Shown here: piece after piece, positions 4,644 through 61,690 of the stretch
How positions within the stretch are numbered: position 1 is the first letter of the stretch
How the letters are laid out: every line of letters begins with the position of its first letter
Source of the DNA: Parcubacteria group bacterium
GTDB lineage: Bacteria; Patescibacteriota; Minisyncoccia; UBA6257; Colwellbacteraceae
Length of the DNA: 64,000 nt
Reading direction: 5' to 3'
Assembly: GCA_041649615.1 (NCBI GenBank)
Contig: JBAZMT010000002.1
Coordinates: forward strand, 10,017 to 74,016
Notes under the pieces: generated by a model
The model's database searches: none
Told to the model about the DNA's origin: nothing
The model's input: only the letters and a program-made list of their open reading frames with translations
Position numbers and translations under genes: made by a program

Positions 4644-4718
4644 GCCCTCGTAGTTCAATGGATAGAGCAGCACACTCCTAACGTGCTGATGGAGGTTCGA
4701 TTCCCCCCGAGGGCACCA
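4644..4718 (+). tRNA. tRNA-Arg (CCU), CCA encoded
   Basis: Acceptor GCCCTCG/CGAGGGC, anticodon loop CUCCUAA, T-loop TTCGATT; ends ACCA. One mismatch in the T stem. Confidence 0.7.
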
Positions 4719-4731
4719 AATTTTTGTTTTG

Positions 4732-4802
4732 TCGGGCTGCCGGGAGTTGAACCCAGACCTCATGCTCCCAAAGCATGTATACTACCGCTATACTACAGCC
4801 CG
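4732..4802 (-). tRNA. tRNA-Pro (UGG); D-arm/position-26 region irregular
   Basis: Reverse complement has a clean anticodon arm CATGC-TTTGGGA-GCATG (U33, G37), T-arm CTGGG-TTCAACT-CCCGG and acceptor CGGGCTG/CAGCCCG. The D region is 1-2 nt short of canonical. Confidence 0.6.
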
Positions 4803-4831
4803 GTGTGGTTTGTAGCGGCATTATAACCGCG

Positions 4832-4903
4832 TACCCCGAGAAGGAATTGAACCCTCATTTACTCCTTAGAAGGGAGTCGTTCTATCCGTTGAACTATCGG
4901 GGC
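4832..4903 (-). tRNA. tRNA-Arg (UCU)
   Basis: Reverse complement GCCCCGA-TA-GTTC-AACGGATA-GAAC-G-ACTCC-CTTCTAA-GGAGT-AAATG-GAGGG-TTCAATT-CCTTC-TCGGGGT-A. Confidence 0.8.
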
Positions 4904-9801: not shown

Positions 9802-11049
9802 ATGGATAAAAAAATTCAAAAATTAATTGAACGGGAAGTTTCGCGTCAAAATAAAACGATAGATCTTATTCCATCGGAGAATTTAATGTCTCCGGACATT
9901 CTTTCCATTCTCGGATCACCTTTGGCAAATAAATATTCGGAAGGGTACCCAGGCAAGAGATATTATCCGGGAAACGCCGTTTGCGACGAGATAGAGCTTC
10001 GGGCGCAGGAGGTGGCGCTCAAGGCATTCGGATTAAGTCCGGACGGATGGGCGGTAAACGTTCAACCTTATTCCGGATCGCCGGCGAATTTGGCGGTTTA
10101 TCTGGGACTTATGAATCCGGGAGACACGTTGATGGGCATGGAACTTGCCTCTGGTGGACACCTTACGCACGGGCACAAAGTTTCGGCGACCGGAAAATTG
10201 TTCAATTCGGTTCAATACGGACTTGGGAAAAGCGGAAGGATCGATTACAACACCATTCTTGCGCTTGCAAAAAAAAACAGACCGAAGGTCATCGTATCCG
10301 GAACAACCGCGTATCCTAGAAAACTGGATTTCAAAAAATTCGGCGAGATAGCCTCGTCCGTGAAGGCGTATCACGTGGCCGATATTTCACATATCGCGGG
10401 GTTAGTGCTTACGGGAAATCATCCGTCTCCTTTCAAATATGCTCACGTCGTGACCACTACGACTCATAAAACTTTGCGCGGTCCGAGAGGAGCGGTGATT
10501 TTTGCGAGGAAGGAACCGCTGAAATTGGGAGAAGGAACCATTAACGGAGCGATAGACAAAGCGATTTTTCCGGGAATCCAAGGCGGTCCGCACAATAATC
10601 AAACGGCGGCAATCGCAGAGTGCTTTTATGAGAGTTTAAACCCTGAATTTAAAAAGTACGGAACTCAAATCGTGAAAAATGCAAAAGCACTCGCGGCGGC
10701 ACTCATGAAAAAAGGATTCAAGCTGGTAACCGGAGGAACGGATAATCATTTGATTCTTGCCAATTTAAAGATTTTTGAGATCAGCGGAAGAGACGCTCAA
10801 AACTTACTTGAAGAAAACGGGATAGTAGCGAACAGAAATTCCGTTCCGGGAGATATCTCTCCCTTTAATCCTTCCGGGTTAAGAATCGGCACTCCTTCCG
10901 TTACAACGAGAGGAATGAAAGAAAAAGATATGGAGAAAATAGCGGACTTGATGCATAGAGCGATAGTGCTTAAAGGAAACGTAAAAGAAGAAACCGAACG
11001 TTTGGCTCTGAAATATCCGGCAGATAAATTCACTAAATGGAGAAAATAG
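9802..11049 (+). CDS. glyA: serine hydroxymethyltransferase
   Basis: Full-length SHMT pattern ('VTTTTHKTLRGPRGA' PLP-lysine region); 415 aa. Confidence 0.95.
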   Translation: MDKKIQKLIEREVSRQNKTIDLIPSENLMSPDILSILGSPLANKYSEGYPGKRYYPGNAVCDEIELRAQEVALKAFGLSPDGWAVNVQPYSGSPANLAVYLGLMNPGDTLMGMELASGGHLTHGHKVSATGKLFNSVQYGLGKSGRIDYNTILALAKKNRPKVIVSGTTAYPRKLDFKKFGEIASSVKAYHVADISHIAGLVLTGNHPSPFKYAHVVTTTTHKTLRGPRGAVIFARKEPLKLGEGTINGAIDKAIFPGIQGGPHNNQTAAIAECFYESLNPEFKKYGTQIVKNAKALAAALMKKGFKLVTGGTDNHLILANLKIFEISGRDAQNLLEENGIVANRNSVPGDISPFNPSGLRIGTPSVTTRGMKEKDMEKIADLMHRAIVLKGNVKEETERLALKYPADKFTKWRK

Positions 11050-11831
11050 ACGGAAAAGCCATTGCCGAGGAAGTGTATACCCGAATAGGGGACAGAACCG
11101 GAGACGGATTAAAACTCGTTGTCGTCATGGCGGGAGACGATCCGGCAACCGAGTCTTTCGTGGCACAGAAGAAAAAAGCGGCTTTGAGGACGGGGATTAA
11201 TTTTGAAGTAGTTAAATTTTCGGAGGAGGCGGAAACGGAAAAACTGGTGGAATCCGTAAAACGAGCATCCGAGAATCATGAAATAACGGCTGTAATAGTT
11301 CAGCTTCCTTTACCTCAAAAAATAGACAAAGCTCGCGTGCTTAAGGCGATAGAACCAACAAAAGACGTGGATTCGTTAAATGGGGGAAAAATACCGGCAC
11401 CGGCGGCTCAAGTAGTTAAAGAGATACTTAGATATTTGAATAAAGATATAAGCTTGTTTGATTTTGCAGTTGTCGGGTATGGGATTCTGGTGGGAAAACC
11501 GGTTTATGAATTTTTATTGCCTCGCGCGAAATCGGTCCGTATTTTTGAGCGTAGTGACGATTTAGCGGATGTTGCAAAAGCGGACGTGATAATTTCTGGT
11601 ACCGGCGTTCCGGGACTAATTTCGCCTCATATGGTGCGTGACGGGGCGATTGTTATTGATTTCGGTTATGGGATGAAGGACGGAAAAGTCGGGGGAGATT
11701 TTGACCCGCAGATTTCGGATAAAAATATTTTCTATACGCCGACTCCGGGAGGAACGGGGCCGATACTTGTCGCCGAACTTTTTCTAAATATAGTCTTACT
11801 TGGCCGAAGCGGCGATTCGCTCAATCTCTAG
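11037..11831 (+). CDS. folD: bifunctional methylene-THF dehydrogenase/cyclohydrolase
   Basis: FolD pattern ('[11 protein letters not shown]' and others); start overlaps the glyA stop. Confidence 0.9.
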
Positions 11832-12824
11832 GCTCAAGTCTTTCTCAATCTCTCTAAGGAGCGGTTTGTTTTCTCTTAATTTTTCTTTGGAGGCTTCAAT
11901 ACCCACGCCTAGTTTCTCTTCCTTAAACGAATAAGTGTTGCCGCTTTTTTTGACGATACCGTACTTCAAACCGGTGTTAATCAAATCTCCTTCATAAGAG
12001 ATTCCCTCGTTAAACATGATGTCAAACTCGGTAGATCTAAAAGGAGGGGCCACTTTATTTTTGACTACTTTGGCGCGAACTCTGTTTCCGACAACTTCTT
12101 CTCCTTTTTTGATTTGCGCGATGCGTCTTAAATCGACGCGAACGGACGAATAAAATTTGAGCGCTCTTCCTCCGGGAGTGGTAGTCGTTTCTCCATAGCC
12201 CATCATTCCGATTTTTTCTCTTATCTGATTGATGAATACAAGAAGAGTTTTGGACTTGGCGGCAATAGCCGTAATTTTTCTCATAGCCTGGGAAATCATT
12301 CGAGCTTGAAGTCCGACATACTGCGCTCCCATTTCACCCTCAATTTCGGCTCTGGGCGTAAGCGCCGCCACCGAATCAATGATTATGACGTCAATAAGTC
12401 CCGATTTAACGAGGCTTTCCATTATGTTTAAAGCTTCTTCGCCGTTGTCGGGTTGAGAAATTATAAGTTCCTTAATATCAACGCCAATCTTTTTCGCTCT
12501 TTCCGGATCAAGAGAATGCTCGGCGTCAATGAAAGCCGCTTTACCTCCTTTTTTCTGGGCTTCGGCGATTATCTGGAGACCAAGCGTGCTTTTGCCGGAC
12601 ATCTCCGGTCCGAATACTTCAACTATTCTGCCTTTGGGAAAGCCGCCTACGCCAAGCGCAAGATCAAGACTGAACGATCCGGAAGGGATGGACTCAATGT
12701 TTGAGTGCTTAATCTCGCCCAGTTTCATAACCGATTCCTCTCCGAACTTTTCACGGATGGATGCTATGAGCGAGTCCAAATCACTCCCTTCGTCAGGTCT
12801 GTTTTTAGATGTTTTCTTCTCCAT
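11796..12824 (-). CDS. recA: recombinase RecA
   Basis: Walker A 'GPEMSGKST'; near-invariant RecA core across the whole length. Confidence 0.95.
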
Positions 12825-33212: not shown

Positions 33213-33284
33213 GCGAGAGTAGCACAGTGGCCAGTGCGCCTGCCTTCCAAGCAGGATACGCGGGTTCGATTCCCGTCTCTCGCT
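33213..33284 (+). tRNA. tRNA-Gly (UCC), discriminator U
   Basis: GCGAGAG-TA-GCAC..., anticodon arm CCTGC-CTTCCAA-GCAGG, T-loop TTCGATT, acceptor CTCTCGC-T. Confidence 0.85.
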
Positions 33285-33353
33285 CATAAGTGTCCCTGGA
33301 AGAGATATCAGAAAAAATAAAAGAGCATGTTTTAAAACATGCTCTTTTTGGTT

Positions 33354-33734
33354 TCACATATTCCCTCTTGCTTCAAAGAGAGAGTCGCAGTACCTCTTTA
33401 AAACGAGATAAGCACTCCGTCCTCCGTCGTTAGAGAATGGAACGAAGGCCCCCCTTCGGAGACATAGGTCAGAAAAGACATTTCTATCCATAAGTCTCTC
33501 CTTGACGTTTTTGTCGAGATCCTGAGCGCGAATCGCCCAAGGCCTCCCGAACTCATCATAGATCGCTATGACGCCATTATTGAGATCCCATGTCCAAGGG
33601 GATCCCATACCAATGGGTTTGCCATTTTCAAGGTGACCATACAAGAGAAGAAAATCGTGATTGAGTAAGTTAAAGGACAACATATAATTCGTACCCATCT
33701 TTGCGTTCCTCCTATCAGAACATCTTGCGGGCAA
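33354..33734 (-). CDS. hypothetical protein
   Basis: ORF with coding-like composition; no family recognised. The start may be an internal Met. Confidence 0.4.
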   Translation of the reverse strand: MPARCSDRRNAKMGTNYMLSFNLLNHDFLLLYGHLENGKPIGMGSPWTWDLNNGVIAIYDEFGRPWAIRAQDLDKNVKERLMDRNVFSDLCLRRGAFVPFSNDGGRSAYLVLKRYCDSLFEARGNM

Positions 33735-33938
33735 GAGCTAGTTAAAGATTTCTAACTCTCCCTTCATTATAGCATATTTTATCTATATTGTCAAGTTATC
33801 ATTGATTTTACCAGTTATTTAAGACTAGACTCAATGTGAAGCTAGCCCTTGTATTCCATATTTTCTATTGGAAATAGGGATACCCGGGCATCGCTCGGCG
33901 AGAATATGAAAATAGATTTTCCTATTCTCGCTTCGCTC

Positions 33939-34010
33939 GCCCTTGTCGTTCAATGGATAGGACGCAAGATTGCGGATCTTGAAATAGGGGTTCGATTCCC
34001 TTCAGGGGCA
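33939..34010 (+). tRNA. tRNA-Arg with apparent anticodon GCG (unusual)
   Basis: GCCCTTG-TC-GTTC-AATGGAT-AGGAC-G-CAAGA-TTGCGGA-TCTTG-AAATA-AGGGG-TTCGATT-CCCTT-CAGGGGC-A; followed by a terminator. Confidence 0.6.
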
Positions 34011-51442: not shown

Positions 51443-51500
51443 CGTGCAAAGATTTTTTGAAATTCTGCCGGGGGCGCTTGCTTGGACGACCATAATCGCA

Positions 51501-52949
51501 ATGTTTTTCGTTTCGTGGCTTTTTCCCGTTGAAACGGCGATATTCATCATTCTTTTTGACATCTACTTCTTGCTTCGGACGATTCACTTTGCGATACACC
51601 TGGGTTTCGGGTATCGGGAAATGAAGAGGACGCAAAAAATAAACTGGCTGGAACGAACGAAAGAGTTGCCAGAAAGAAACGGGAAAAAGTGGAGCGATAT
51701 GTATCACCTTGTGATTTTCCCCATGTATAAGGAATCTTTGTCCGTCGTGAGAGAGAGTTTTAATTCGCTTTTGAAAACGAATTATCCGCTAGACCGGTTT
51801 ATCGTGGTTCTTTCCGGCGAAGAAAGAGCGGGAGAAGAGACGAGAGAACTAATAGATAAAATAAAAGAAGAATATGACGGGAAATTTTTCAGACTTTTTA
51901 CGACTATACATCCGAGCGATTTGCCGAACGAGATTCCGGGAAAAGGATCAAACGAAACTTGGGCGGCGAGAAGCGTAAAAGAGAAGGTAATAGATAAAGA
52001 AAATATTCCTTACGAGAATATTTTGGTTTCCACTTTTGACATAGATACGCAAGTTTTTCCCGATTATTTCGGCCGTCTGACTTGCGCTTACTTCACGGCG
52101 GAATATCCAGATAGAAGCAGCTACCAGCCGGTTGTGTTTTTTATAAACAATATTTACGAAGCTCCGATATTTGCGCGGATCGTGGCTTTTTCAACGACTT
52201 TTTGGAACATAATGAGCCAGGTCAGGCCGGAGAAGCTTATAACTTTTTCATCGCACTCAATGCCTTTCAAAGCGCTCGTGGAAATCGGATTTTGGATGAC
52301 AAATCACGTTTCGGAAGATTCCCTTATTTTTTGGCAGTGTTTTTTGCATTACAACGGCGACTGGAGAACGATTCCTTTGAATTATCCCGTATCAATGGAT
52401 GCGAACGTGGCGCCGACTTTTTGGCGAACGATGAAAAACATCTACAAGCAACAAAGAAGATGGGCGTGGGGATGCGAAAACATTCCATACGTTTTCGGAG
52501 GATTCATCAAAAACAAAAAGATAGCCATCCGACAGAAAATATATTGGGTGTATCAACACATAGATATTTATTGGGGATGGGCGACTAACGCCTTGATAAT
52601 TCTTTTGCTCGGCAGGTTGCCTCTTATTCTCGGAGGCGAAAGTTTTAACAAGACGATTCTTTCGTATCAGTTGCCGCAACTTACAAGCACTTTCATGAAC
52701 TTGGCGGTCGTGGGTATCATCACTTCGGCAATAATTTCGGTTGCGATTCTGCCGCCGAAGCCGGAAGGTTTCCGGTGGTATCACTACTTTTTATTTGTCG
52801 TGCAGTGGCTGTTGTTACCGATAAACTTGATAGTATTTAGCGCCATACCGGGACTTGATTCGCAAACGAGAATGATGCTTGGCGGCAAATTCCGGCTTGG
52901 ATTTTGGGTAACACCGAAGGCAAGAAAAGGAGAAAATTTACGAGAGTAA
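51501..52949 (+). CDS. membrane-embedded family-2 glycosyltransferase (processive, cellulose/chitin-synthase-like)
   Basis: N- and C-terminal TM helices; cytosolic domain with 'FDIDTQ' (DxD), 'SEDSLIFW' (ED) and 'KQQRRWAWG' (QxxRW). Start placed after the tRNA at ATG 51501; the GTG at 51444 would abut the tRNA. Confidence 0.65.
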   Translation: MFFVSWLFPVETAIFIILFDIYFLLRTIHFAIHLGFGYREMKRTQKINWLERTKELPERNGKKWSDMYHLVIFPMYKESLSVVRESFNSLLKTNYPLDRFIVVLSGEERAGEETRELIDKIKEEYDGKFFRLFTTIHPSDLPNEIPGKGSNETWAARSVKEKVIDKENIPYENILVSTFDIDTQVFPDYFGRLTCAYFTAEYPDRSSYQPVVFFINNIYEAPIFARIVAFSTTFWNIMSQVRPEKLITFSSHSMPFKALVEIGFWMTNHVSEDSLIFWQCFLHYNGDWRTIPLNYPVSMDANVAPTFWRTMKNIYKQQRRWAWGCENIPYVFGGFIKNKKIAIRQKIYWVYQHIDIYWGWATNALIILLLGRLPLILGGESFNKTILSYQLPQLTSTFMNLAVVGIITSAIISVAILPPKPEGFRWYHYFLFVVQWLLLPINLIVFSAIPGLDSQTRMMLGGKFRLGFWVTPKARKGENLRE

Positions 52950-52975: not shown

Positions 52976-53503
52976 ATGAGCAATAAGAGGATTTTTATTA
53001 TCGGCGGGATAGTTATTTTCGCTTTTCTCGTTGTGGTCGGGATTCTTTATTATTTTGGCAATAACTCCAGGGGAAAATTGGGCGGAGAATCAACGGGAGA
53101 CGCTTTTCTTGAAGAACTTGAAAACATTCCGGTGCCGGAGATGGGAGAAACGCCCTCAAATGAATCGGTTGCCGTTCCAGTCTCCGTAAGAGAAGCGGTA
53201 GAAGGGGCGAGCGAACAAATCAGATCTTTTCTTGTCAGCGTAGAGAAAGAGAAATTTACGCCGTCCATAGTTTCGGTAAATAAGAACGACACGGTACACA
53301 TTAATTTCACGGCGGTAGACGATGATTATGACGTGGTCGTTCCGGATTACGGGTTAAGTCAGAGGATGAGGAGAGGAGAAACAAAGACAATTGAATTTAG
53401 GGCGGAAACGGAAGGAACACACGTTTATTATTGCGAATCGTGCGGAGGATTGGACTCTCAAGCAAAAGGGTACATCGTGGTTAAATCATCCACACCCAAC
53501 TAG
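52976..53503 (+). CDS. membrane-anchored hypothetical protein with a beta-rich, possibly cupredoxin-like, C-terminal domain
   Basis: N-terminal TM; 'HVYYCESCGG' Cys-containing block. Cu ligands not canonical. Confidence 0.35.
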   Translation: MSNKRIFIIGGIVIFAFLVVVGILYYFGNNSRGKLGGESTGDAFLEELENIPVPEMGETPSNESVAVPVSVREAVEGASEQIRSFLVSVEKEKFTPSIVSVNKNDTVHINFTAVDDDYDVVVPDYGLSQRMRRGETKTIEFRAETEGTHVYYCESCGGLDSQAKGYIVVKSSTPN

Positions 53504-53530: not shown

Positions 53531-54259
53531 ATGAGGAAGATCGCGTTTTTGATTTTCGCCGTTATGGGGATCGCTGTATTTTCTGCGGCGCCGGTTTTGG
53601 CTTGGACCAATCCAGCAGCTAATCCGGCAACGGGAGGAGGAGCGGTAACGGCGGAACAGAATGCTCCAGCAAGTTCCATTCTTATAAAGAACACAGGCGG
53701 AGTTTGGATTAATACGACGACGGATACGAGGCCTCTTGTGATTTCGCGCAATGGAACCGATAGCGAGCGGATAAATATCGGGATAACGGACGGCACAACA
53801 AATTTCTATTACAAAAATGACGAGGCGGTAGGTTCGATCTCCTTTAGAATTCAAAATACGGACACCGAGACGGGAGGAGGGGCGGCGGCGAATGATAATG
53901 TGATAATGACCATCTTGGGCGGCGGAGCAAGTTACGATAACGGTCGCGTCGGTATAGGTACTGCCAGTCCTTCATATAAATTGTCCGTAGCGGGTTGGAT
54001 CCAATCAACTACCGGCGGGTTTAGGTTTCCTGATGGAACAACCCAGACAACGGCTGCCAGCAGTTCTACCGTAAACGCGGCGAATGTTTCTGCGGGAACG
54101 TTCGGGGACAACACGGGAGGAGGTATTTATCTTTTCCCCTCAAATATCGGATTTAAGAGCGGTGTAAGCTCGTTTACGATACGGCCCATAAGCACTACGT
54201 CTATGGGAATTTATGATAGCGCGGGAGCGCAAGTGCTTGTTCTAGACGAAGGAACATAG
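53531..54259 (+). CDS. secreted Gly/Thr/Ser-rich repeat protein (tail-fibre/beta-helix-like motif)
   Basis: Signal peptide; 'GRVGIGTASPSYKLSVAGWI' resembles a motif common in phage tail-fibre-like and adhesin proteins. Recall-based. Confidence 0.45.
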   Translation: MRKIAFLIFAVMGIAVFSAAPVLAWTNPAANPATGGGAVTAEQNAPASSILIKNTGGVWINTTTDTRPLVISRNGTDSERINIGITDGTTNFYYKNDEAVGSISFRIQNTDTETGGGAAANDNVIMTILGGGASYDNGRVGIGTASPSYKLSVAGWIQSTTGGFRFPDGTTQTTAASSSTVNAANVSAGTFGDNTGGGIYLFPSNIGFKSGVSSFTIRPISTTSMGIYDSAGAQVLVLDEGT

Positions 54260-54446: not shown

Positions 54447-55193
54447 TTGATGGCTTTTGTTTGGGACGAGTTGAAGGAACTAAAAAGAATTTTTATTCCG
54501 TGGGTTTATATATTCGGGGTTTTGGGAATAGGATTTTTTTCGGTACCTGTTTTAGAAGGTAAAACGATCGCGGCGGAGGCATTCTTGCAAATGAAAAGCA
54601 TGCTCGTGCCGAAGGAAGTGGAATTTATCGTTACCGAGCCGGTTTCGGCGTTCGTGGTGCAAGTGGGCATCGCGCTTATGATCTCTTTTATTCTCACTTC
54701 GCCTTTTTTCTTTTACAGGCTAGCCAAATACATTTCGGGGGCGCTTTACGACAAAGAAAGAAGAACGTTACGAAAATTGTTTTTACCGGCGGCATTTCTT
54801 TTCGCGGCGGGGGCGGTATTCGGCTATTTCATAATCTTGCCGCCCACTTTTAAAATCCTTTACGAATATGCGGGGAATATCGGAGCAAAACCCTTCTTTT
54901 CCGTATCCGATTTTGCCGTTTTTACGCTTGGATTCACCTTCGCCTGCGGGATAATGTTTCTTCTGCCCGTGGCGATGGGAATCCTGAATTTCGTAGGGGT
55001 TACTAATAGAGCCATGTGGAAGAAAAACTGGCGTTACGCTTTCTTAATTTTTCTAATCGTGTCTGCTATAATTACGCCAGATGGAAGCGGGGTTACGATG
55101 ATAATGCTTTCATTGCCCTTGACCGGACTTTATTTTGTAGGCTCGGTCGCGGGTGGTAACGGTCGAAAACAAACTAAAAAGGATAAAAAATAA
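54447..55193 (+). CDS. tatC: twin-arginine translocase subunit TatC
   Basis: Six TM helices; 'ITPDGSG' TatC motif. Confidence 0.85.
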   Translation: MMAFVWDELKELKRIFIPWVYIFGVLGIGFFSVPVLEGKTIAAEAFLQMKSMLVPKEVEFIVTEPVSAFVVQVGIALMISFILTSPFFFYRLAKYISGALYDKERRTLRKLFLPAAFLFAAGAVFGYFIILPPTFKILYEYAGNIGAKPFFSVSDFAVFTLGFTFACGIMFLLPVAMGILNFVGVTNRAMWKKNWRYAFLIFLIVSAIITPDGSGVTMIMLSLPLTGLYFVGSVAGGNGRKQTKKDKK

Positions 55194-55194
55194 A

Positions 55195-55374
55195 ATGGGT
55201 TTCACAGAACTAGCGATAATAGTTGTTCTTGCAATAATTGTTTTCTTTGGCGGCAAAAAAATAGCCGAGCTTGCGAGGTCGGCCGGTCGCGCTTCGGCTG
55301 AATTCAAGAAAGGAAAGCTAGAGGCGGAGAAGGAAGTCAAAGACTTGATGAAAGACAATGAAGGCAAAAAATAA
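55195..55374 (+). CDS. tatA: twin-arginine translocase subunit TatA/E
   Basis: 'MGFTELAIIVVLAIIVFFGGKKIAELARSAGRASAEFKKG' TatA TM helix plus amphipathic helix. Confidence 0.8.
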   Translation: MGFTELAIIVVLAIIVFFGGKKIAELARSAGRASAEFKKGKLEAEKEVKDLMKDNEGKK

Positions 55375-55615
55375 GACAAACGAAAAAAGAAGAAAATTTC
55401 TGAAGCTCTTGGCTTTTGGCGGAATTGCGCTCGTAGCGGCAAAACTTTTCGGGAATAAACTAACGGCTTTAGCGGCTCCCGTTTCCGCTTTGCCGAAGAA
55501 AAAAGAAAGCCAAAAAACGTTCGGGGACAAAGTAAATATGATTGAGGACGACAAGCAAGTGGCTTTCATTGATAAGAGAACGGGAGAAGAAATATTTATT
55601 TTAGAAAAAGACTAA
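55358..55615 (+). CDS. small protein with a twin-arginine (Tat) signal peptide
   Basis: 'EKRRKFLKLLAFGGIALVAAKLFG' matches the Tat RRxFLK consensus followed by a hydrophobic core. Overlaps the tatA 3' end and is translationally coupled to the next gene. Confidence 0.5.
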   Translation: MKAKNKTNEKRRKFLKLLAFGGIALVAAKLFGNKLTALAAPVSALPKKKESQKTFGDKVNMIEDDKQVAFIDKRTGEEIFILEKD

Positions 55616-55616
55616 A

Positions 55617-55904
55617 ATGGCAATTAAAATATCCAAAAACAGGCTGGATATGGACAGCAAACCGATCAAGAATTCGGGACGCATAGACGCGACCGAAATT
55701 CACGGGATAGTTTATTACACGGACGTTCATTTTGAGGAAAAAGAATGCGCCGTTTGCGGAGCGCGTTTTAAGCCCGGAGACGGAATTGCGCTTTATGTCA
55801 GGAGAGTAACCGCGAAAGGAACCGATCTGATCCCGGCCCACATAGATTGTTTTTGCTGCGAGACAAAGAAAGGTCAATCAAAAAAGAAAATAAAAAAAAG
55901 ATAA
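55617..55904 (+). CDS. small Cys-containing hypothetical protein (zinc-ribbon-like)
   Basis: 'CAVCG...CFCC'; its stop overlaps the next start (TAATG). Confidence 0.4.
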   Translation: MAIKISKNRLDMDSKPIKNSGRIDATEIHGIVYYTDVHFEEKECAVCGARFKPGDGIALYVRRVTAKGTDLIPAHIDCFCCETKKGQSKKKIKKR

Positions 55905-56179
55905 TGGCGTTTGAATGGAAATTAATAGGGGACGATACGGGCGACGCAAAAACGGAAACTTCACAACCAGCGCAATCAACGCCTGTTCCACAGCCGGTGA
56001 CTTCGCAATCGGAGAATCCAAAGCCTGCGCAGTCAGAAGCGGAAACGCCTGCTAACGGACCGGCTTGTCCGAACCATAACGCATCGGAGAATACGGGTTA
56101 TCACAACGTTCATGACTCGGGAGTTTATAACTCGTATGATACGGGAGCGAACGTAGATGAGAATTCGGTAGTTGGTTAA
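55904..56179 (+). CDS. MAFxW-family protein A (91 aa): candidate precursor/substrate of the radical-SAM enzymes
   Basis: Starts 'MAFEWKLIGDDTGDAKTE'; Pro/Gln/Ser/Asn-rich; shares its N-terminal motif with the next two genes. Confidence 0.5.
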   Translation: MAFEWKLIGDDTGDAKTETSQPAQSTPVPQPVTSQSENPKPAQSEAETPANGPACPNHNASENTGYHNVHDSGVYNSYDTGANVDENSVVG

Positions 56180-56203: not shown

Positions 56204-57124
56204 ATGGCGTTTACTTGGAGCTCGCTTAGCGCGGGAAGCCCAATTGAAGACGAAGACTATAACGAGGTTAAAACAAACCTCGATTCGGTGTATTCGGCTT
56301 TAGGAATTTCCAGGCCAAGCTGCTCGGGGCCAGGATGGACGGTTTTGCCCGTATCAAGCGGTTCGGCGATAACTTCGGCTCAATCACAGCAGTTAAGGGA
56401 CGTAACGGACTATGCCGATACGAATTGGTGTAAGACGCACAACACGGCGCATTGTAGCGGAGTTAATTCTACTGAAAATGTAACTCATAATAGCGGTAAT
56501 AATGCAACAGTTAATGCGACGGCCAATACAACCGTTAGATCAACCCACAATTCTGGTCATTATACCTCTTACAACGCAACGGTGGATGCGTCGGATTATG
56601 TGAATGATTTCATGACTAACTGTTACCATTACATTGCTGCTGATTCTGCGGCAAAGGTAAATGATTATGTGACTGTTCAGACTATGCACTTCTCCGCTTT
56701 TCAATCTGGCCTATGTGGACAGGAGAACACTACACATAATACCACTGTTCGAGCAGCGCATTGGGGTCCTTTTAATGGAACGGTTAATTTAACAGTAAGA
56801 GCAGCGCACAATGCCGATTACGACAGTCCCGACAACATAGGAGCGCAGGCGACAAATAATACCACCCATTACGGTTCAAACTGGAGTCCTTATAACAACG
56901 GCGTTAATACGTCTGTAAGGAGCGCTTATTACGTTGATAACGACGCGCCCGATTACATAAGCGTAAGAACAACGCATAATACCACTCATTTAAGCGCGCA
57001 TAATGGTACTGTTCGAGCCGCCTATTGGGGGCCGTATAACGGAACGGTATATACGACGCACAAGGGAACACATCACTCAAATTATGACGGGACGGATAAC
57101 AGTACGGTGAGAAGCGTTTATTAA
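56204..57124 (+). CDS. MAFxW-family repeat protein B (306 aa): Asn/Thr/His/Tyr-rich, candidate radical-SAM substrate
   Basis: Leader-like N-terminus 'MAFTWSSLSAGSPIEDEDYNEVKTNLDSVYSALGI'. Repeated modules 'NTTH', 'TVRAAHWGPFNGTV', 'NNTTHYGSNWSPYNNGVNTSVRSAYYVDNDAPDYIS'. No signal peptide. Confidence 0.55.
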   Translation: MAFTWSSLSAGSPIEDEDYNEVKTNLDSVYSALGISRPSCSGPGWTVLPVSSGSAITSAQSQQLRDVTDYADTNWCKTHNTAHCSGVNSTENVTHNSGNNATVNATANTTVRSTHNSGHYTSYNATVDASDYVNDFMTNCYHYIAADSAAKVNDYVTVQTMHFSAFQSGLCGQENTTHNTTVRAAHWGPFNGTVNLTVRAAHNADYDSPDNIGAQATNNTTHYGSNWSPYNNGVNTSVRSAYYVDNDAPDYISVRTTHNTTHLSAHNGTVRAAYWGPYNGTVYTTHKGTHHSNYDGTDNSTVRSVY

Positions 57125-57136
57125 TATAGAAAACAA

Positions 57137-57937
57137 ATGGCTTTTACTTGGCAACAAAATATAGGAGTGGGTTCTTCCATTGATGCGGCGGATATTTTAG
57201 AAATTCGCACGAACGTTAATACGGTAGATTCTAAAAAATGTGTAACTCACAACGCGGGTGTTAATACAACTTATAATTCTGGGGTAGACAGCACTGATAG
57301 AGCGAGTCATTACTCAGGGCAGAACACAACGGTACGGTCGACTTATAATAGCAGTCAAAACAGTGCAAATAATGTAACTGTTTATACAGGACAAGACTCT
57401 GGTTATCATGGCACTGCCGATGCTGAATTTTGGGGACAGCACCACACAAGTGAAGAAGTGGGAGCGAAAACTTATGTTTATTCAGGCTTTAATACAGGTG
57501 TTTATACAAACCAAGATGCAGGGGTATTCACGGGCAATAATAGTGCTGTTCGAGCTACTCATAATACTACACACGACGGGAGCGATTATGATACGCAATA
57601 TTCTTCGCAGAATACTACCCATAACGGCGCACACTGGAGTCCGTATAACGGATACGTATATACGACAGTAAGGGCAAATTATTATGTGGATAATGATACG
57701 CCCGACTATATATCACACAACACAAACAACAATACCACTCACTACGGTTCAAACTGGAGCCCATATAATTCAAGCGTTAATACGACGGTTAGAGCAACTC
57801 ATAATGCGGGCGTATTGAGCATTCATAATAGCAATCACGACGGAGGAGACTATACGAGCCAGTATTCTACTCATAATCCGAACTATAAAACCGCTCATTG
57901 GGGACCGTATAATGCAACGCACAATCGCAATTATTAG
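57137..57937 (+). CDS. MAFxW-family repeat protein C (266 aa): paralogue of B
   Basis: 'MAFTWQQNIGVGSSIDAADILEIRTNVNTVDSKK' plus the same modules ('NTTHYGSNWSPYNSSVNTTVRATH', 'YYVDNDTPDYIS', 'HWGPYNAT'). Confidence 0.55.
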   Translation: MAFTWQQNIGVGSSIDAADILEIRTNVNTVDSKKCVTHNAGVNTTYNSGVDSTDRASHYSGQNTTVRSTYNSSQNSANNVTVYTGQDSGYHGTADAEFWGQHHTSEEVGAKTYVYSGFNTGVYTNQDAGVFTGNNSAVRATHNTTHDGSDYDTQYSSQNTTHNGAHWSPYNGYVYTTVRANYYVDNDTPDYISHNTNNNTTHYGSNWSPYNSSVNTTVRATHNAGVLSIHNSNHDGGDYTSQYSTHNPNYKTAHWGPYNATHNRNY

Positions 57938-58113
57938 CCTAGAAACTAGAAACCAGTATTTATACGGTAAACTAGAAAACGAATTTGGGTTCTGATTTTT
58001 ACGGGCCTATCTTGATTAGGATTATGGCGGAGACGGACCCTCCTACGCTAAAACTACGGAAGGGTGGCGACTGTCAAGTTGATATAGAGGAACCCCTTAA
58101 CTAAAATAGGAGG

Positions 58114-59403
58114 ATGAGATTTGAGGCGGCCGAACTTTTAACGACCGGACAATGCCCGTTGAGCTGCAAGTACTGTTACATTCCAAAGGTACCGGCGATG
58201 CAGGCGGTGCATGCCGATATCGTTAAAGGATTAGAAGACGGAACGTTTTTAGAAAATTTAAAAAAAATAGTGGGTGATAATCTGACCCACCTTAGTTTTT
58301 GGGGAACGGAACCGGCGCTCACTCTGCCTATTTTAAAAAACAAACTGGACGATATAGAAAGACTTTTTCCAAAGGCGAAAGAGATAGGTTTTTCGACTTC
58401 AATGGTGATGCCCGAGCCGATCATTGACTTTGCAAAGGAGCTTGAAAAAAGAGGACTGAAATTGAATTTGCAGGTTTCGCTCGACGGGCCGGAATTTATC
58501 GTGGACGAGAACCGGTTTCCCGGGGCGGCCAAGAAAATCCCCGAGGCGATACTTCACTTCGTGAAAGAAATGCAAGGGACGAACGTTTATATTGATTTGC
58601 ATTGGAAACCGACGCTCACGATTGAAAATATCCAAGCGATGACCGAAAAACCGGAGAAAATTGACGAATATATTAATTTTTTCCGTGATTTGGAGGCGGA
58701 AATAAAAAAAATAAATACGTCTTCAAACGTCATAATGAGGGAGGGAGGATATATTCCCACGCTTGCCGTACCGGGGAAATTTACATCGGCGGACGGAAAA
58801 TTATTTGCTAAATATTTAAGAACCCTACACAGCAAGGGTTACGAGAGCGCTTATTCGCATCGACTAACAAGAATAATAAACTATTCGGACGAATTAGGAC
58901 CAAAGAGAAGAATGTTTACCTGTTCGGGGGGAGATTCAAACGTGGGAGTAGGCGACAGTTTGCATATTTGCCACCGAACTTTTTACTTAAACGATCCGCG
59001 TTATGTGGGGGCGGTATTGGAAAAGGAAGGAATAGAGAATTGGGATGTTTCCATCTTTAACCAAGGACTCGTAGACCATTTGAGAGAGTGGTATATGCCT
59101 TCGGTTGACGATGAACTGAAACTCCAGAACTTTGATTATATTTTAAGAGGGTATCATGACTTCTGGGCGATTAAACTTTCTTCAATCGAGGTGATGACAA
59201 AGGAGCTTGCTCTCGCGGGGCAAGCCGACCCATTGTTTTTGGAAAACAAAGATTATATGAGTTTATTTACGCTTTTTATGGCAACCGCGCATTCGTGCCC
59301 GATGGAGGCGGTTTTAAACACGGGGACGCTTCAACTTACGCCCGTGTCGCTCATAAGAATGTTCGGGAACGGAGCCTTCAGGGAAATAATAAAAATCGTA
59401 TGA
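58114..59403 (+). CDS. radical SAM enzyme (CxxxCxxC), paralogue 1
   Basis: AGGAGG SD; 'GQCPLSCKYCY' rSAM cluster motif; C-terminal Cys-containing 'FTCSGGD...SLHICHRT'. Confidence 0.8.
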   Translation: MRFEAAELLTTGQCPLSCKYCYIPKVPAMQAVHADIVKGLEDGTFLENLKKIVGDNLTHLSFWGTEPALTLPILKNKLDDIERLFPKAKEIGFSTSMVMPEPIIDFAKELEKRGLKLNLQVSLDGPEFIVDENRFPGAAKKIPEAILHFVKEMQGTNVYIDLHWKPTLTIENIQAMTEKPEKIDEYINFFRDLEAEIKKINTSSNVIMREGGYIPTLAVPGKFTSADGKLFAKYLRTLHSKGYESAYSHRLTRIINYSDELGPKRRMFTCSGGDSNVGVGDSLHICHRTFYLNDPRYVGAVLEKEGIENWDVSIFNQGLVDHLREWYMPSVDDELKLQNFDYILRGYHDFWAIKLSSIEVMTKELALAGQADPLFLENKDYMSLFTLFMATAHSCPMEAVLNTGTLQLTPVSLIRMFGNGAFREIIKIV

Positions 59404-60722
59404 CATACCAGGAAGAAAACAATCAGTTAGTAGAATCGTTCTTGAATCACAGCTTCTTCAAGGGATTTAAACATCCCGAGCTTAAAGAAAGCGAGAATTT
59501 TAAATCGTTAGAGCTTTTCTTTAACGACAAATGCAACTTAAAGTGTAAATACTGTTATCTGCAACGGTTTGGAGAAAAACTGTATCCGCACGAACATCAA
59601 GACGGGGAAACACTTCTTAAAAATTTAAAAATGCTTTTGGATTGGTTGAACGAGAAAGAATACGTGCCGGAACACATAGAAATATTCTCGGGAGAAGTAT
59701 TTATCCAAGACGCAGGTTGGAAGGCGATAAATATGATCCTTGACAACTATAAGGACAAAGAAAAAAAGCCGGAATACATAGTGGTGCCAACAAACTTTAC
59801 TTTTATACTCTCGTCTGACCTCACAAAAAAGGTAGAGGATTTACTTACTAAGGCCAAAGAAGTTGGTCTACCTATAGGACTTTCCTCATCATTTGACGGG
59901 AAATACTGCGAAGTAAACAGACCTTTTAAGAGCGGGAAAGAGATAAGGGACGACGCTTATTACGACAAAGTTTTTGAATTTTCCAAAAAATGGGGAACGG
60001 GGTTTCATCCGATGGTCTACTCGGAGCATATTGAAGACTGGCAGAAGAATTGGTTGTGGTTCCAAGAAAATTTTTCAAAGCATCGGCTGCCGTGGAAAAA
60101 TATCTATCTTTTAGAAGTTCGGAACGTGGAATGGACCGAAAGGCAGATGGCGGATTTGGGGAAGTTTGTGGAATTTTTGATCCATTGGACTTTTGACAAT
60201 CCTTGCCATGGAGACGTAGGCACGTATTTAGATTTTCTCTTTGATGGAGGATACAACATTTTAAGGAACCCTTTGACGACCATCGGGAGAGGAATCGGAT
60301 GTTCCATTCAATCAAATTTGGTTTTGAGACTCGGGGATCTGTCTCTTGTGCCGTGCCATAGAACGTCTTATTCGCCCTTTAACTTCGGCAAATTTAAGGT
60401 AGAAAACGGCAAAATAACGAGTTTTGAATCAAAGAACGTAGATATGATGGTCGCCATATATTCTTTTGACGCGAGTACCCAGCCTTATTGCGAACAGTGC
60501 CTTCTGAAGACTTTGTGTTCGTTCGGGTGTTTGGGAAGCCAATTAGAAGTTACCGGGGACCCGTTTACGCCTATTCCTTCCGTTTGCCAGATGGAGCACA
60601 TAAAAGTGGCTTCAATGATTAAGGCCTATAAAGAACTCGGCATGTTAGAGCCCGTACTTGCGAGAGTGGGTCAAGGGAAAGCAGACGTACTCCAAGAACT
60701 AGCGAAAATGCTCGGATACTGA
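59400..60722 (+). CDS. radical SAM enzyme with a SPASM-like C-terminal Cys cluster, paralogue 2
   Basis: 'KCNLKCKYCY' rSAM motif; 'SLVPCHRT' shared with paralogue 1; C-terminal 'YCEQCLLKTLCSFGCLG...SVCQMEH' auxiliary-cluster pattern. Its ATG overlaps the upstream stop (ATGA). Confidence 0.85.
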   Translation: MTYQEENNQLVESFLNHSFFKGFKHPELKESENFKSLELFFNDKCNLKCKYCYLQRFGEKLYPHEHQDGETLLKNLKMLLDWLNEKEYVPEHIEIFSGEVFIQDAGWKAINMILDNYKDKEKKPEYIVVPTNFTFILSSDLTKKVEDLLTKAKEVGLPIGLSSSFDGKYCEVNRPFKSGKEIRDDAYYDKVFEFSKKWGTGFHPMVYSEHIEDWQKNWLWFQENFSKHRLPWKNIYLLEVRNVEWTERQMADLGKFVEFLIHWTFDNPCHGDVGTYLDFLFDGGYNILRNPLTTIGRGIGCSIQSNLVLRLGDLSLVPCHRTSYSPFNFGKFKVENGKITSFESKNVDMMVAIYSFDASTQPYCEQCLLKTLCSFGCLGSQLEVTGDPFTPIPSVCQMEHIKVASMIKAYKELGMLEPVLARVGQGKADVLQELAKMLGY

Positions 60723-60783: not shown

Positions 60784-61353
60784 ATGGAAAACCAAATAAC
60801 TAACACTCTGCAAGCCAGCAAATCTCAAGTTGAGCGTATTTTAAATTACGAGGATGATCTAAAGCGCATATTCGCTTCCCAGCATGTCAGCAATATAAAA
60901 AGAACCCTCAATTTTATGACGGAACAACTTACAACCGTTATAAACGGGGGAAACGTTGTGCCGACTTCCGAAGAGATGAATATGGCAGCGGAAATGGCGC
61001 GCGTTTTTGCGAACATTGCGCTTGAGAAACCGATTGAGCCGATATTTCGAGACCTTTCGGCGAGTTATCTTTTGATCATTCACAACTGGAACGAGGCTAC
61101 GATCAAAAATCATAATATTTCCACAAACGTCAAAATGACGAACGGAATCGTGAAGGCGCAACTAACGCTTATGGATACGATAGACGTACTCCAAAAAACG
61201 CTTGAAAAAATAAGAAAAACTCACCTATATGAACCGCCGGCGTTTAATTTAAGTAGATCGTATCTGGATAACTTGAAGAAAGCCATTGAAGAAAAAGGCC
61301 CGGACGCCTTAGTCCCAAAAAAGCCGGATAATGTCTCAAACCAAGAAAGCTAA
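60784..61353 (+). CDS. hypothetical protein (189 aa)
   Basis: Clean ORF downstream of the radical-SAM pair; no family recognised. Confidence 0.4.
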   Translation: MENQITNTLQASKSQVERILNYEDDLKRIFASQHVSNIKRTLNFMTEQLTTVINGGNVVPTSEEMNMAAEMARVFANIALEKPIEPIFRDLSASYLLIIHNWNEATIKNHNISTNVKMTNGIVKAQLTLMDTIDVLQKTLEKIRKTHLYEPPAFNLSRSYLDNLKKAIEEKGPDALVPKKPDNVSNQES

Positions 61354-61690
61354 AAAAGACCCGAGAATAGATTCGTTCTCCAGAGCTCTTAATTTATCCA
61401 TTTTTGAAAATTTTTCGGCGCAGGTGAGAGGAAAAGTGGATACGATAAGTAAAAACGCGATTACCGTAAAGGAAGGGAAGGACAAAGTAAAACTTTTGTT
61501 TGACAAGGATTTTCCGCCCGCCGTTATAAAAATAACAATTGGCGGCAAGACCGGGAAAAAAGCCGAGGATATTACTCTTGCGGCCGTTAAGACGGGAAAG
61601 AAGGTGTCGGCCAACGTCGCGTTGCTTCCATCCGGAGAATGGAAGGCCTTTGGAATTGCCATGAGAGAGGAGGTAAAATCCTCAAAGTGA
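61331..61690 (+). CDS. hypothetical Lys-rich protein (119 aa)
   Basis: ORF overlapping its neighbours; weak. Confidence 0.35.
   Translation: MSQTKKAKKDPRIDSFSRALNLSIFENFSAQVRGKVDTISKNAITVKEGKDKVKLLFDKDFPPAVIKITIGGKTGKKAEDITLAAVKTGKKVSANVALLPSGEWKAFGIAMREEVKSSK

Follow-up and report, generated by a model that had tools for sequence, protein, structure and literature searches.

Four-residue repeat proteins beside two radical SAM genes in a Parcubacteria genome: probable enzyme substrates and candidate fibre or adhesin proteins

What is produced at a locus of a Parcubacteria group bacterium where proteins of extreme composition are encoded next to one another, and what acts on them? We addressed this question in a 64-kb stretch of DNA (contig JBAZMT010000002.1, positions 10,017 to 74,016; hereafter the window), for which a first-pass annotation made from the letters alone had pointed out two paralogous proteins, B and C, with dense N-x-T/S triplets, many His residues and nearly identical modules. 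A third paralogue (A), a strict four-residue register and two radical S-adenosylmethionine (SAM) enzyme genes (rSAM1 and rSAM2) directly downstream were absent from that annotation. Taking these together, we suggest that the locus encodes radical-SAM-modified fibre or adhesin proteins which are exported in this cell via the twin-arginine translocation (Tat) system, with an overall probability of about 0.55. Individual loci that carry the same gene module are given L-numbers (L001, L002 and so on). The repeat proteins, the enzymes and their closest companions are as follows:

Protein A, 55904..56179, + strand: minimal paralogue of 91 amino acids (aa), with MAFEWKLIG at the N-terminus, a Pro/Gln-rich linker, Cys55 and ~9 tetrads.
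Protein B, 56204..57124, + strand: 306 aa, with a predicted MAFTW two-helix N-domain (residues 1-75), the invariant boundary Cys76 and then tetrad repeats.
Protein C, 57137..57937, + strand: 266 aa, with a short MAFTW N-domain (residues 1-34), boundary Cys35 and 58 tetrads to the C-terminus.
rSAM1, 58114..59403, + strand: 429 aa, with CxxxCxxC at C14/C18/C21 and three further conserved Cys (270, 286, 395).
rSAM2, 59400..60722, + strand: 440 aa, with CxxxCxxC at C45/C49/C52 and a seven-Cys SPASM domain (C301, C319, C364-x2-C367-x5-C373-x3-C377, C396).
p189, 60784..61353, + strand: predicted helical bundle with a conserved C-terminal YEPPAFxLSRxYL; a core member of the module.
p119, 61331..61690, + strand: small protein, found after p189 solely in close relatives (L001, L002, L008, L010).

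A, B and C lie on the same strand, A directly upstream of B, and all of them begin with MAF-x-W. B and C are 36% identical (BLASTP, E 4e-34), and the near-identical modules reported earlier are present as described: B 218-239 (NNTTHYGSNWSPYNNGVNTSVR) corresponds to C 198-219 (NNTTHYGSNWSPYNSSVNTTVR), and B 242-253 (YYVDNDAPDYIS) to C 182-193 (YYVDNDTPDYIS). The triplets N-x-S/T are indeed abundant, at 5.9 (B) and 5.3 (C) per 100 aa compared with a mean of 0.51 (maximum 2.3) in 60 other open reading frames (ORFs) of the window, i.e. about ten times the background; the count of dozens in each protein was an overstatement, since B has 18 and C has 14 (32 in total). The claim of many His residues was also correct (5.6% in B and 6.4% in C versus 1.6% in the same 60 ORFs). 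Relative to composition-preserving shuffles, N-x-T was over-represented (16 versus 4.4 expected in B, z 6.3; 10 versus 4.9 in C, z 2.6) and N-x-S was not (z -1.0 in B and 0.2 in C), and the pattern [HYWF][ND][STAG] occurred 12 and 15 times in B and C versus ~3.5 expected (z 5-6). Direct reading of the N-termini of B and C revealed neither a hydrophobic nor a twin-arginine signal, in agreement with the previous statement that they lack a signal peptide.

The N-x-T triplets and the richness in His and Tyr can be traced to a repeat of four residues. From the invariant Cys onward, members of the family follow the consensus [N/D/Y]-[S/T/A/G]-[T/G/S]-[Y/V/H/D] in in-register tetrads. C contains 58 consecutive tetrads with zero indels (column 1, N22 Y12 D7 R5 W4; column 2, T17 S16 A9 G8; column 3, T17 G12 S9; column 4, H15 V13 Y9 Q7), and the repeat region of B is broken by a non-repetitive insert (approximately residues 132-175) with the register shifted by one. 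Between lags 4 and 40, self-identity of the B and C repeats is highest at all multiples of 4 (0.13-0.27 versus 0.02-0.10 elsewhere), and across 182 proteins of the family the identity at lags 4, 8, 12 and 16 was 0.180 versus 0.064 at other lags. A phase-tracking model gave one slip per ~135 residues (12,714 residues), and the indels between orthologues were 8, 16, 28 and 40 residues long. The tetrad register is a conserved and selected feature of the family.

The N-x-T triplets are simply columns 1-3 of the tetrad, as in N-T-T-V, and a consensus of N-[S/T]-T-V accounts for the enrichment of N-x-T and not of N-x-S. Column 1 is N, D or Y in 26, 18 and 14% of cases family-wide, and His and Tyr are choices at columns 4 and 1, where other lineages have Asp, Glu or Val. 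The richness in N-x-T and His/Tyr is this genome's version of the tetrad consensus. Throughout the family the repeats are very polar (Leu, Ile, Phe and Met together ~6%) and contain essentially no Cys; the single conserved Cys of A, B and C is found in the context C-x-x-x-N. A tetrad W-[G/S]-P-[Y/F] followed by N was also observed three times in B (186-191, 227-232, 274-279) and three times in C (167-171, 207-211, 255-259); it appears 3-4 times per orthologue in close Parcubacteria relatives and is rare otherwise (9 of the 190 family proteins). That B and C have this tetrad equally often hints at concerted evolution or in-register co-assembly.

B and C are coding paralogues under purifying selection at the protein level. 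Tandem Repeats Finder detected no DNA tandem repeat spanning the shared modules, its single hit being a 12-nt array in C that is short and weak (57475-57508; 2.8 copies with 68% matches), and the repeat copies are 60-80% identical at the nucleotide level with many synonymous changes. When compared with the orthologues of L008, a related Parcubacteria genome, the ratio of nonsynonymous to synonymous substitution rates (dN/dS) was 0.02-0.05 for the N-domains and 0.13-0.21 for the repeats, values that are approximate because dS was saturated; the N-domains were ~95% identical (proportion of nonsynonymous differences, pN, 0.03-0.09) and the repeat regions had a pN of 0.28. The previous argument for selection on protein motifs over random low complexity is thus borne out by dN/dS below 0.25 and by the synonymous changes between repeat copies. 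Failed coding tests and a pure DNA repeat, which had been named as grounds for abandoning it, were not found. A non-coding or low-complexity artefact was ruled out because B has 126 homologue representatives, dN/dS is well below 1 and no tandem DNA repeat exists beyond the 12-nt array of C. The idea that the repeats are targets of a diversity-generating retroelement was excluded in part: by inspection, the mismatches between repeat copies are mixed, mostly synonymous and not adenine-specific, and a reverse transcriptase was not searched for.

Among 1.84 billion cluster representatives searched exhaustively with HMMER, 126 (representing clusters at 50% identity) were homologues of B. A word-index homology search with C alone found nothing, and C-type orthologues in related loci were recovered by phmmer and jackhmmer; the family as a whole was recovered only by exhaustive HMMER and context-based searches. 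A total of 190 distinct B- and C-type proteins were analysed. Family members range from 91 aa (A) to about 600 aa, and in two of them the N-domain is interrupted by a LamG/ConA-like lectin domain. Orthologues of A are confined to the close relatives L002 and L008.

The MAFTW segment, which had been considered a leader, is a conserved N-terminus; it is confidently predicted as the start of a folded domain of ~75 aa (MxFxW) and not as a simple short leader. In an AlphaFold2 model of B based on a 51-sequence alignment, the predicted local distance difference test score was 86-97 for residues 1-70 and fell to ~74 by residue 80, with predicted helices at 16-33 and 58-73. The residues invariant among 30 diverse members are M1, W5, E21, W45, D69 and the boundary Cys76. 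The N-domain of C-type proteins is shorter, and A has only MAFEW and a linker before Cys and the tetrads. Searches with Foldseek found nothing similar to the N-domain of B in PDB and only one weak match in BFVD, an uncharacterised rudivirus protein (E 0.46). An apparent internal duplication was also noticed between residues 10-34 and 52-76 of B (motif G-x-x-I-(3)-D/Q-x-N/Q-E/Q-[VL]-[KR]-(3)-D); BLASTP pairs residues 50-76 of B with residues 9-35 of C, and the motif is found once in C-type proteins.

Which enzymes might act on such repeats? The Cys residues of CxxxCxxC are kept in 94-100% of the homologues of rSAM1 (34 sequences) and rSAM2 (37 sequences). The seven SPASM Cys of rSAM2 are 97-100% conserved; rSAM1 lacks the seven-Cys signature and, judged from its sequence, has a reduced auxiliary-cluster domain. 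Both proteins matched Pfam Radical_SAM just under the gathering score (E 2e-6 for rSAM1 and 6e-5 for rSAM2), and rSAM2 matched the SPASM domain model TIGR04085 (E 3e-4). All their NCBIfam matches were peptide-modifying rSAM/SPASM maturases, including PapB, QhpD, HxsB, GrrM/OscB, the CXXX-repeat family and others, with a nif11-type maturase among the weak ones. The best match was PapB (NF047865; 36 bits for rSAM1 and 54 bits for rSAM2 versus a cut-off of 340). Considering that all of these scores (14-54 bits) are far below the family cut-offs (300-850), the two enzymes are classified by sequence as unnamed families. We found 264 homologues of rSAM1, whose nearest solved structure by sequence is ChlB (E 3e-5, generic rSAM core only); for rSAM2 the nearest are 8vpo and CteB 5wgg. 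In the Joint Genome Institute annotation these enzymes are called "sulfatase maturation enzyme AslB".

The spacer between C and rSAM1 (57938-58113) is 176 nt long, and other genes of the cluster are less than 25 nt apart or overlap. Within it, a sigma-70-like site with 10 of 12 matches is located at 58079-58107, and a ribosome-binding site (AGGAGG) is present as well; the region has no excess of promoter-like sites. A structured RNA or attenuator in the spacer was rejected (folding z-score 0.1, no Rfam match). In three IMG/VR loci (L040, L041 and L045, at about 10000-12800), the rSAM1 and rSAM2 homologues are split into ORF pieces of 47-173 aa under genetic code 11, which suggests stop-codon reassignment or pseudogenes.

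An argument for a relationship between the enzymes and the repeat proteins comes from their distribution. We gathered 39 non-redundant loci through exact-protein look-ups and by scanning species-representative genomes and IMG/VR. All 39 encode both rSAM1 and rSAM2; B/C-type genes were found in 31 and p189 in 31, the remaining loci being truncated contigs; in all 31 loci long enough to judge, B/C-type genes lie beside both rSAM genes and p189. The linkage within this five-gene module (two repeat proteins, two rSAMs and p189) is obligatory. Four viral loci have the order rSAM1-p189-B-C-rSAM2-p189', in which the repeat genes are between the enzymes and p189 is duplicated so that each rSAM is followed by a copy. 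Two independent contigs reached from B homologues (L049 and L050) have B and C behind a fibre gene; L050 runs into the start of rSAM1 and L049 ends inside the C-type gene.

One of the options offered by the first-pass annotation was that the shared modules are crosslink or modification sites. With two rSAM maturases directly downstream and B/C-type genes in every judgeable locus, the context favours this option, and A, B and C are probably substrates of rSAM1 and rSAM2. With regard to the chemistry, we would first think of crosslinks between side chains, of the cyclophane or ether/thioether kind, or of epimerisation: a thioether at the single invariant Cys (C-x-x-x-N, recalling C-X3-D of PapB) is possible, and so are other crosslinks and epimerisation. 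We propose crosslink-type chemistry quite tentatively.

Outside cellular genomes the module has a tail-fibre neighbourhood. The IMG/VR scan provided 27 loci, at least two of which are near-duplicates, and at least 25 distinct viral contigs were obtained. The distance from the end of the nearest upstream gene to the first repeat gene is within about -36 to +14 nt in most viral loci, and that upstream gene is of the tail-fibre or tape-measure type wherever identifiable: it matches tail-fibre PHROGs in L024 and L029 and tape-measure PHROGs in L033, and was assigned to the tail-fibre/tape-measure type by direct reading in L016. Two upstream partners are recurrent, namely a family ending in SDTFGF...GRVKVKxxGPVxVGD (13 loci) and tail-fibre proteins of 398-1655 aa with a C-terminal Zn-ribbon, which directly precede B-type genes in L016, L024, L027, L029 and L050. 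No PHROG family was found for B, C or p189, and no relatives of rSAM1 were found among 50,697 GenBank phage records. The module belongs mainly to tail-fibre gene blocks of uncultivated tailed viruses. Several module contigs (L009, L016, L018, L020 and L021) are binned as metagenome-assembled genomes (MAGs) of Dehalococcoidales, Thermoprotei, Omnitrophota, Gammaproteobacteria and Desulfobacterales; since L016 is the same contig as L030 and L018 the same as L037, both from IMG/VR, these MAG labels probably reflect viral contigs binned with cellular genomes.

In the window, which is from a Parcubacteria contig of 157 kb, the module is chromosomal: its flanking genes have housekeeping roles (NifS/NifU, TsaD, pyruvate:ferredoxin oxidoreductase and RecG) and are not phage genes. 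Here its neighbours upstream of A are the following:

p242, 53531..54259, + strand: 242 aa, with a Sec-type signal and a fibre-type repeat (GRVGIGTASPSYKLSVAG...FRFPDGTTQTTA).
TatC, 54450..55193, + strand: Pfam TatC.
TatA, 55195..55374, + strand: Pfam TatA_B_E.
Small twin-arginine protein, 55358..55615, + strand: 85 aa, with RRKFLK, a hydrophobic stretch and a conserved C-terminal GEEIxIxxK.
Zn-ribbon protein, 55617..55904, + strand: 95 aa, homologous to the C-terminal tip of the viral tail-fibre proteins of 398-1655 aa.

TatC and TatA adjoin the module in seven non-redundant cellular loci and in none of the viral loci. The Tat-linked loci come from Parcubacteria and Paceibacterota, from two bins that bear the label Saccharibacteria and from the DPANN archaeon Iainarchaeum, where the genes are in another order. 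The twin-arginine protein is kept beside the module in cellular loci of the candidate phyla radiation (CPR), and an analogous RKFLR protein is encoded in the archaeal locus L006; such proteins are 55-92 aa long and belong to no known family. From its sequence, the 85-aa protein is a candidate Tat carrier or anchor, and export of the products by Tat has in our opinion an even chance of being correct. The Zn-ribbon partner is found in 10 of the 39 loci, with a free-standing copy in most bacterial loci including the window, where the stop codon of its gene is overlapped by the start of A by 1 nt. The repeat of p242 is common to a 489-aa fibre-like protein on the viral contig L035 (2-1471), and p242 may belong to the same surface structure.

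A few other observations were made in this region. Beside the Tat genes, p242 represents a second virus-like fibre component. The start of TatC (window 54447-54470, MMAFVWDEL) has the same M-A-F-x-W as A, B and C, which lie 1.5-2.7 kb downstream; this likeness may be a coincidence, since the segment corresponds in position to the N-terminal helix that TatC usually has. Just upstream of the cluster are genes for a membrane GT2 glycosyltransferase (51444-52949) and a cupredoxin-domain protein with an N-terminal membrane anchor (52976-53503), whose synteny with the cluster is confined to close relatives (L002 and L008). Rfam identified eleven tRNA genes in the window, three of them clustered at 4644-4903 and others at, e.g., 33213-34010, and nothing else at gathering score.

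What kind of product could be made? Gp5_trimer_C matched 3 of 75 family members at E<=0.01. One Asp-rich member, from L044, scored above gathering with both Gp5_trimer_C and DUF2345 (VgrG) (41.2 and 52.8 bits versus 30.9 and 30.7) and matched a solved gp5/Vgr beta-helix (E 3.6e-4). On the basis of the tail-fibre setting, the LamG insertions and these few scores of the gp5/VgrG-type triple beta-helix, it is most likely that the products are fibre-tip or adhesin proteins and not small diffusible peptides. For the fibre or adhesin role taken by itself, the balance is slightly in favour.

Small diffusible peptides would be expected if the locus were a classical pathway for peptides that are synthesised ribosomally and modified post-translationally (RiPPs), in which B and C are multi-core precursors that are crosslinked by the rSAM enzymes and cut into small secreted peptides acting as antibiotics or signals, with MAFxW as a long leader of the NHLP/Nif11 type. 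Enzymes of the peptide-maturase rSAM/SPASM type directly downstream, a conserved N-terminus with a hypervariable C-terminal core, the short paralogue A that resembles leader plus core, and the nif11-type maturase among the weak matches are all compatible with this idea. However, no protease, C39/ABC exporter or GG-type cleavage site was found in the 39 loci, the substrates reach 400-600 aa and some contain LamG, and the register is strict over the whole length. Moreover, the module follows tail-fibre genes in viruses, and Tat exports folded proteins. We consider such a pathway unlikely.

It might also be that B and C are unmodified structural beta-helix fibres and that the rSAMs and p189 have another target, for instance the Zn-ribbon tip of the fibre, a different virion protein or some small molecule. 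The few members with gp5/VgrG-like repeat matches would fit, as would the lack of an evident discrete enzyme motif in the repeats. This scenario is quite unlikely when one considers that the repeat genes were never apart from the rSAMs in the examined loci and can sit between them, and that the Zn-ribbon occurs in 10 of 39 loci compared with B/C-type genes in every judgeable locus. In addition, the very polar repeats have almost no hydrophobic core residues, which suggests a need for covalent or other stabilisation.

Glycosylation, another option of the first-pass annotation in the form of N-glycosylation sequons, would make the N-x-T and Ser/Thr-rich repeats the sites of the main modification. 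The enrichment of N-x-T and the membrane GT2 gene 3 kb upstream in the window speak for it, and a GT1-family glycosyltransferase adjoins the module in seven loci (L004, L010, L016, L023, L029, L036 and L046) and forms an in-frame fusion with rSAM1 in an eighth (L013 2466-4877, 803 aa). On the other hand, N-x-S is not enriched, Asn is exchanged for Asp or Tyr in relatives, and neither an N-glycosyltransferase nor a GT1 homologue was found in the 64-kb window, and no HMW1C-like or oligosaccharyltransferase-type enzyme was seen; GT1 is missing from ~30 of the 39 loci, and synteny of the upstream GT2 is limited to close relatives. As the main modification, glycosylation is very unlikely, and the sequon proposal finds no support here; the presence of GT1 in 8 related loci, including the fusion with rSAM1, implies that it may be an accessory modification in some lineages.

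Finally, repeats of His, Asp, Asn and Tyr that chelate Fe or Zn (as in the tip proteins gp37 and gp12 of T4, which bind metals via His) or Ca (as in beta-rolls) are highly improbable in spite of the 5.6-6.4% His in B and C and the weak resemblance of Asp-rich relatives to EF-hand/lanmodulin sequences, since His averages 5% of the family repeat regions, is conserved at no tetrad position family-wide and is interchangeable there with Tyr, Val and Asp (which tells against the earlier suggestion of His metal-binding modules), no HxH motif is present, and the lanmodulin matches are composition-driven with E >0.02.

We therefore return to modified fibre or adhesin proteins as the best explanation of the locus. 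A, B and C would carry an N-terminal MxFxW recognition or docking element and the invariant Cys, and the tetrad array would be the part modified in the cytoplasm by rSAM1 and rSAM2 with the aid of p189. After modification, the folded and signal-less proteins could cross the membrane via Tat, either as passengers of the twin-arginine protein or anchored by it, and could then form a cell-surface fibre or adhesin.

Several points weigh against this explanation. The assignment of substrates comes from gene context, the Tat hitch-hiking is something we infer, and the fibre role in the cell versus the virion is extrapolated from the homology of neighbouring genes. Coupling between tetrad positions that would mark a discrete enzyme motif was not found family-wide (ratios 0.8-1.2), and an aromatic residue at column 4 is not coupled with N/D at the next column 1 (1.05, family-wide). 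The AlphaFold2 monomer gives the repeat region no confident fold, and B and C of the window have no match to the gp5/VgrG models (Pfam Gp5_trimer_C and DUF2345). No recognition domain of the RiPP recognition element (RRE)/PqqD type was found in the enzymes or as a partner, p189 being a generic helical bundle with no informative structural neighbour. The Tat-signal scores of the 85-aa protein are under the curated cut-offs (TIGR02811, 19 bits versus 48; TIGR01409, 13.4 versus 16.7).

A more far-reaching scenario, which we regard as doubtful, is that a tetrad-repeat receptor-binding fibre of tailed viruses, modified (crosslinked or epimerised) by radical SAM enzymes, has been domesticated by CPR and DPANN organisms with a dedicated Tat system and is displayed as a virus-derived, enzyme-hardened adhesin, plausibly for attachment to host cells. 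To our knowledge, the attachment machinery of CPR/DPANN episymbionts is largely unknown, and a candidate surface adhesin with a dedicated export route would be provided if the proposed explanation is true. It would also be, as far as we know and in the literature searched, the first radical-SAM modification of a virion structural protein, and would extend rSAM peptide chemistry from small natural products to large viral and cellular structural proteins. Many viral genes labelled as "radical SAM / AslB-like" and filed as auxiliary metabolic genes would then have a concrete role. In this case the compact five-gene module, with the 91-aa protein A as a minimal substrate, would be open to direct test.

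How does the module compare with known systems? We found no description of it in the literature on radical SAM enzymes with SPASM domains in Patescibacteria, tail fibers, DPANN, Asgard viruses or virion cross-links. Radical SAM/SPASM systems acting on short-period repeats include PapB/freyrasin (CX3D), the CXXX-repeat family (TIGR04115), HxsABCD (His-Xaa-Ser, with paired rSAMs) and the Gly-rich-repeat cyclophane synthase GrrM/OscB. Similar to these, the present loci have SPASM-type rSAMs, one or two in the known cases, beside a short-periodic substrate, and the pair of rSAM1 and rSAM2 recalls HxsB/HxsC. The differences are that the substrates here are 91 to about 600 aa long with a folded N-domain and essentially Cys-free repeats, that no RRE, protease or exporter is found, and that the setting is a viral tail-fibre block or Tat. 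Membership in the PapB family was not supported (36 and 54 bits versus 340), and the substrates have a single conserved Cys and not Cys-X3-Asp/Glu repeats; similarly, the HxsB scores were 27 and 20 bits versus 370, and the repeat period is 4 and not 3.

The triceptide rSAM/SPASM synthases HaaB (HAA), YhhB (HNR), HtkB (HTK) and ChlB (YDR) modify three-residue His/Tyr motifs (PMC11499958). The over-representation of [HYWF]-[ND]-[STAG] in B and C resembles such substrates, and ChlB is the solved sequence nearest to rSAM1. However, that match covers the core only, the GrrM/OscB, YhhB and AmcB models gave 14-25 bits versus cut-offs of 310-445, and the family-wide lack of coupling between the aromatic column 4 and the following N/D (1.05) is unlike triceptide substrates.

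As regards structure, the eight-residue (2 x 4) periodicity, Val at every eighth position and the phage tail setting are reminiscent of the triple-stranded beta-helix of T4 gp5/VgrG, whereas only 3 of 75 members match it, window B and C do not, and the repeats are far more polar. We know of no radical SAM enzymes associated with gp5/VgrG. As regards export, Tat hitch-hiking allows signal-less folded partners to leave the cell, for example the small and large subunits of hydrogenases. The module resembles this arrangement in that signal-less proteins, presumably matured in the cytoplasm, are encoded with TatA/TatC and a small RRxFLK protein; unlike in hydrogenases, the twin-arginine protein has only 55-92 aa and no known family. 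The type of system, an rSAM/SPASM maturase with a periodic substrate, is known. New are the substrate class (four-residue repeat proteins of 91 to about 600 aa that have a folded N-domain), the setting among virion tail fibres and the coupling with Tat in CPR and DPANN organisms.

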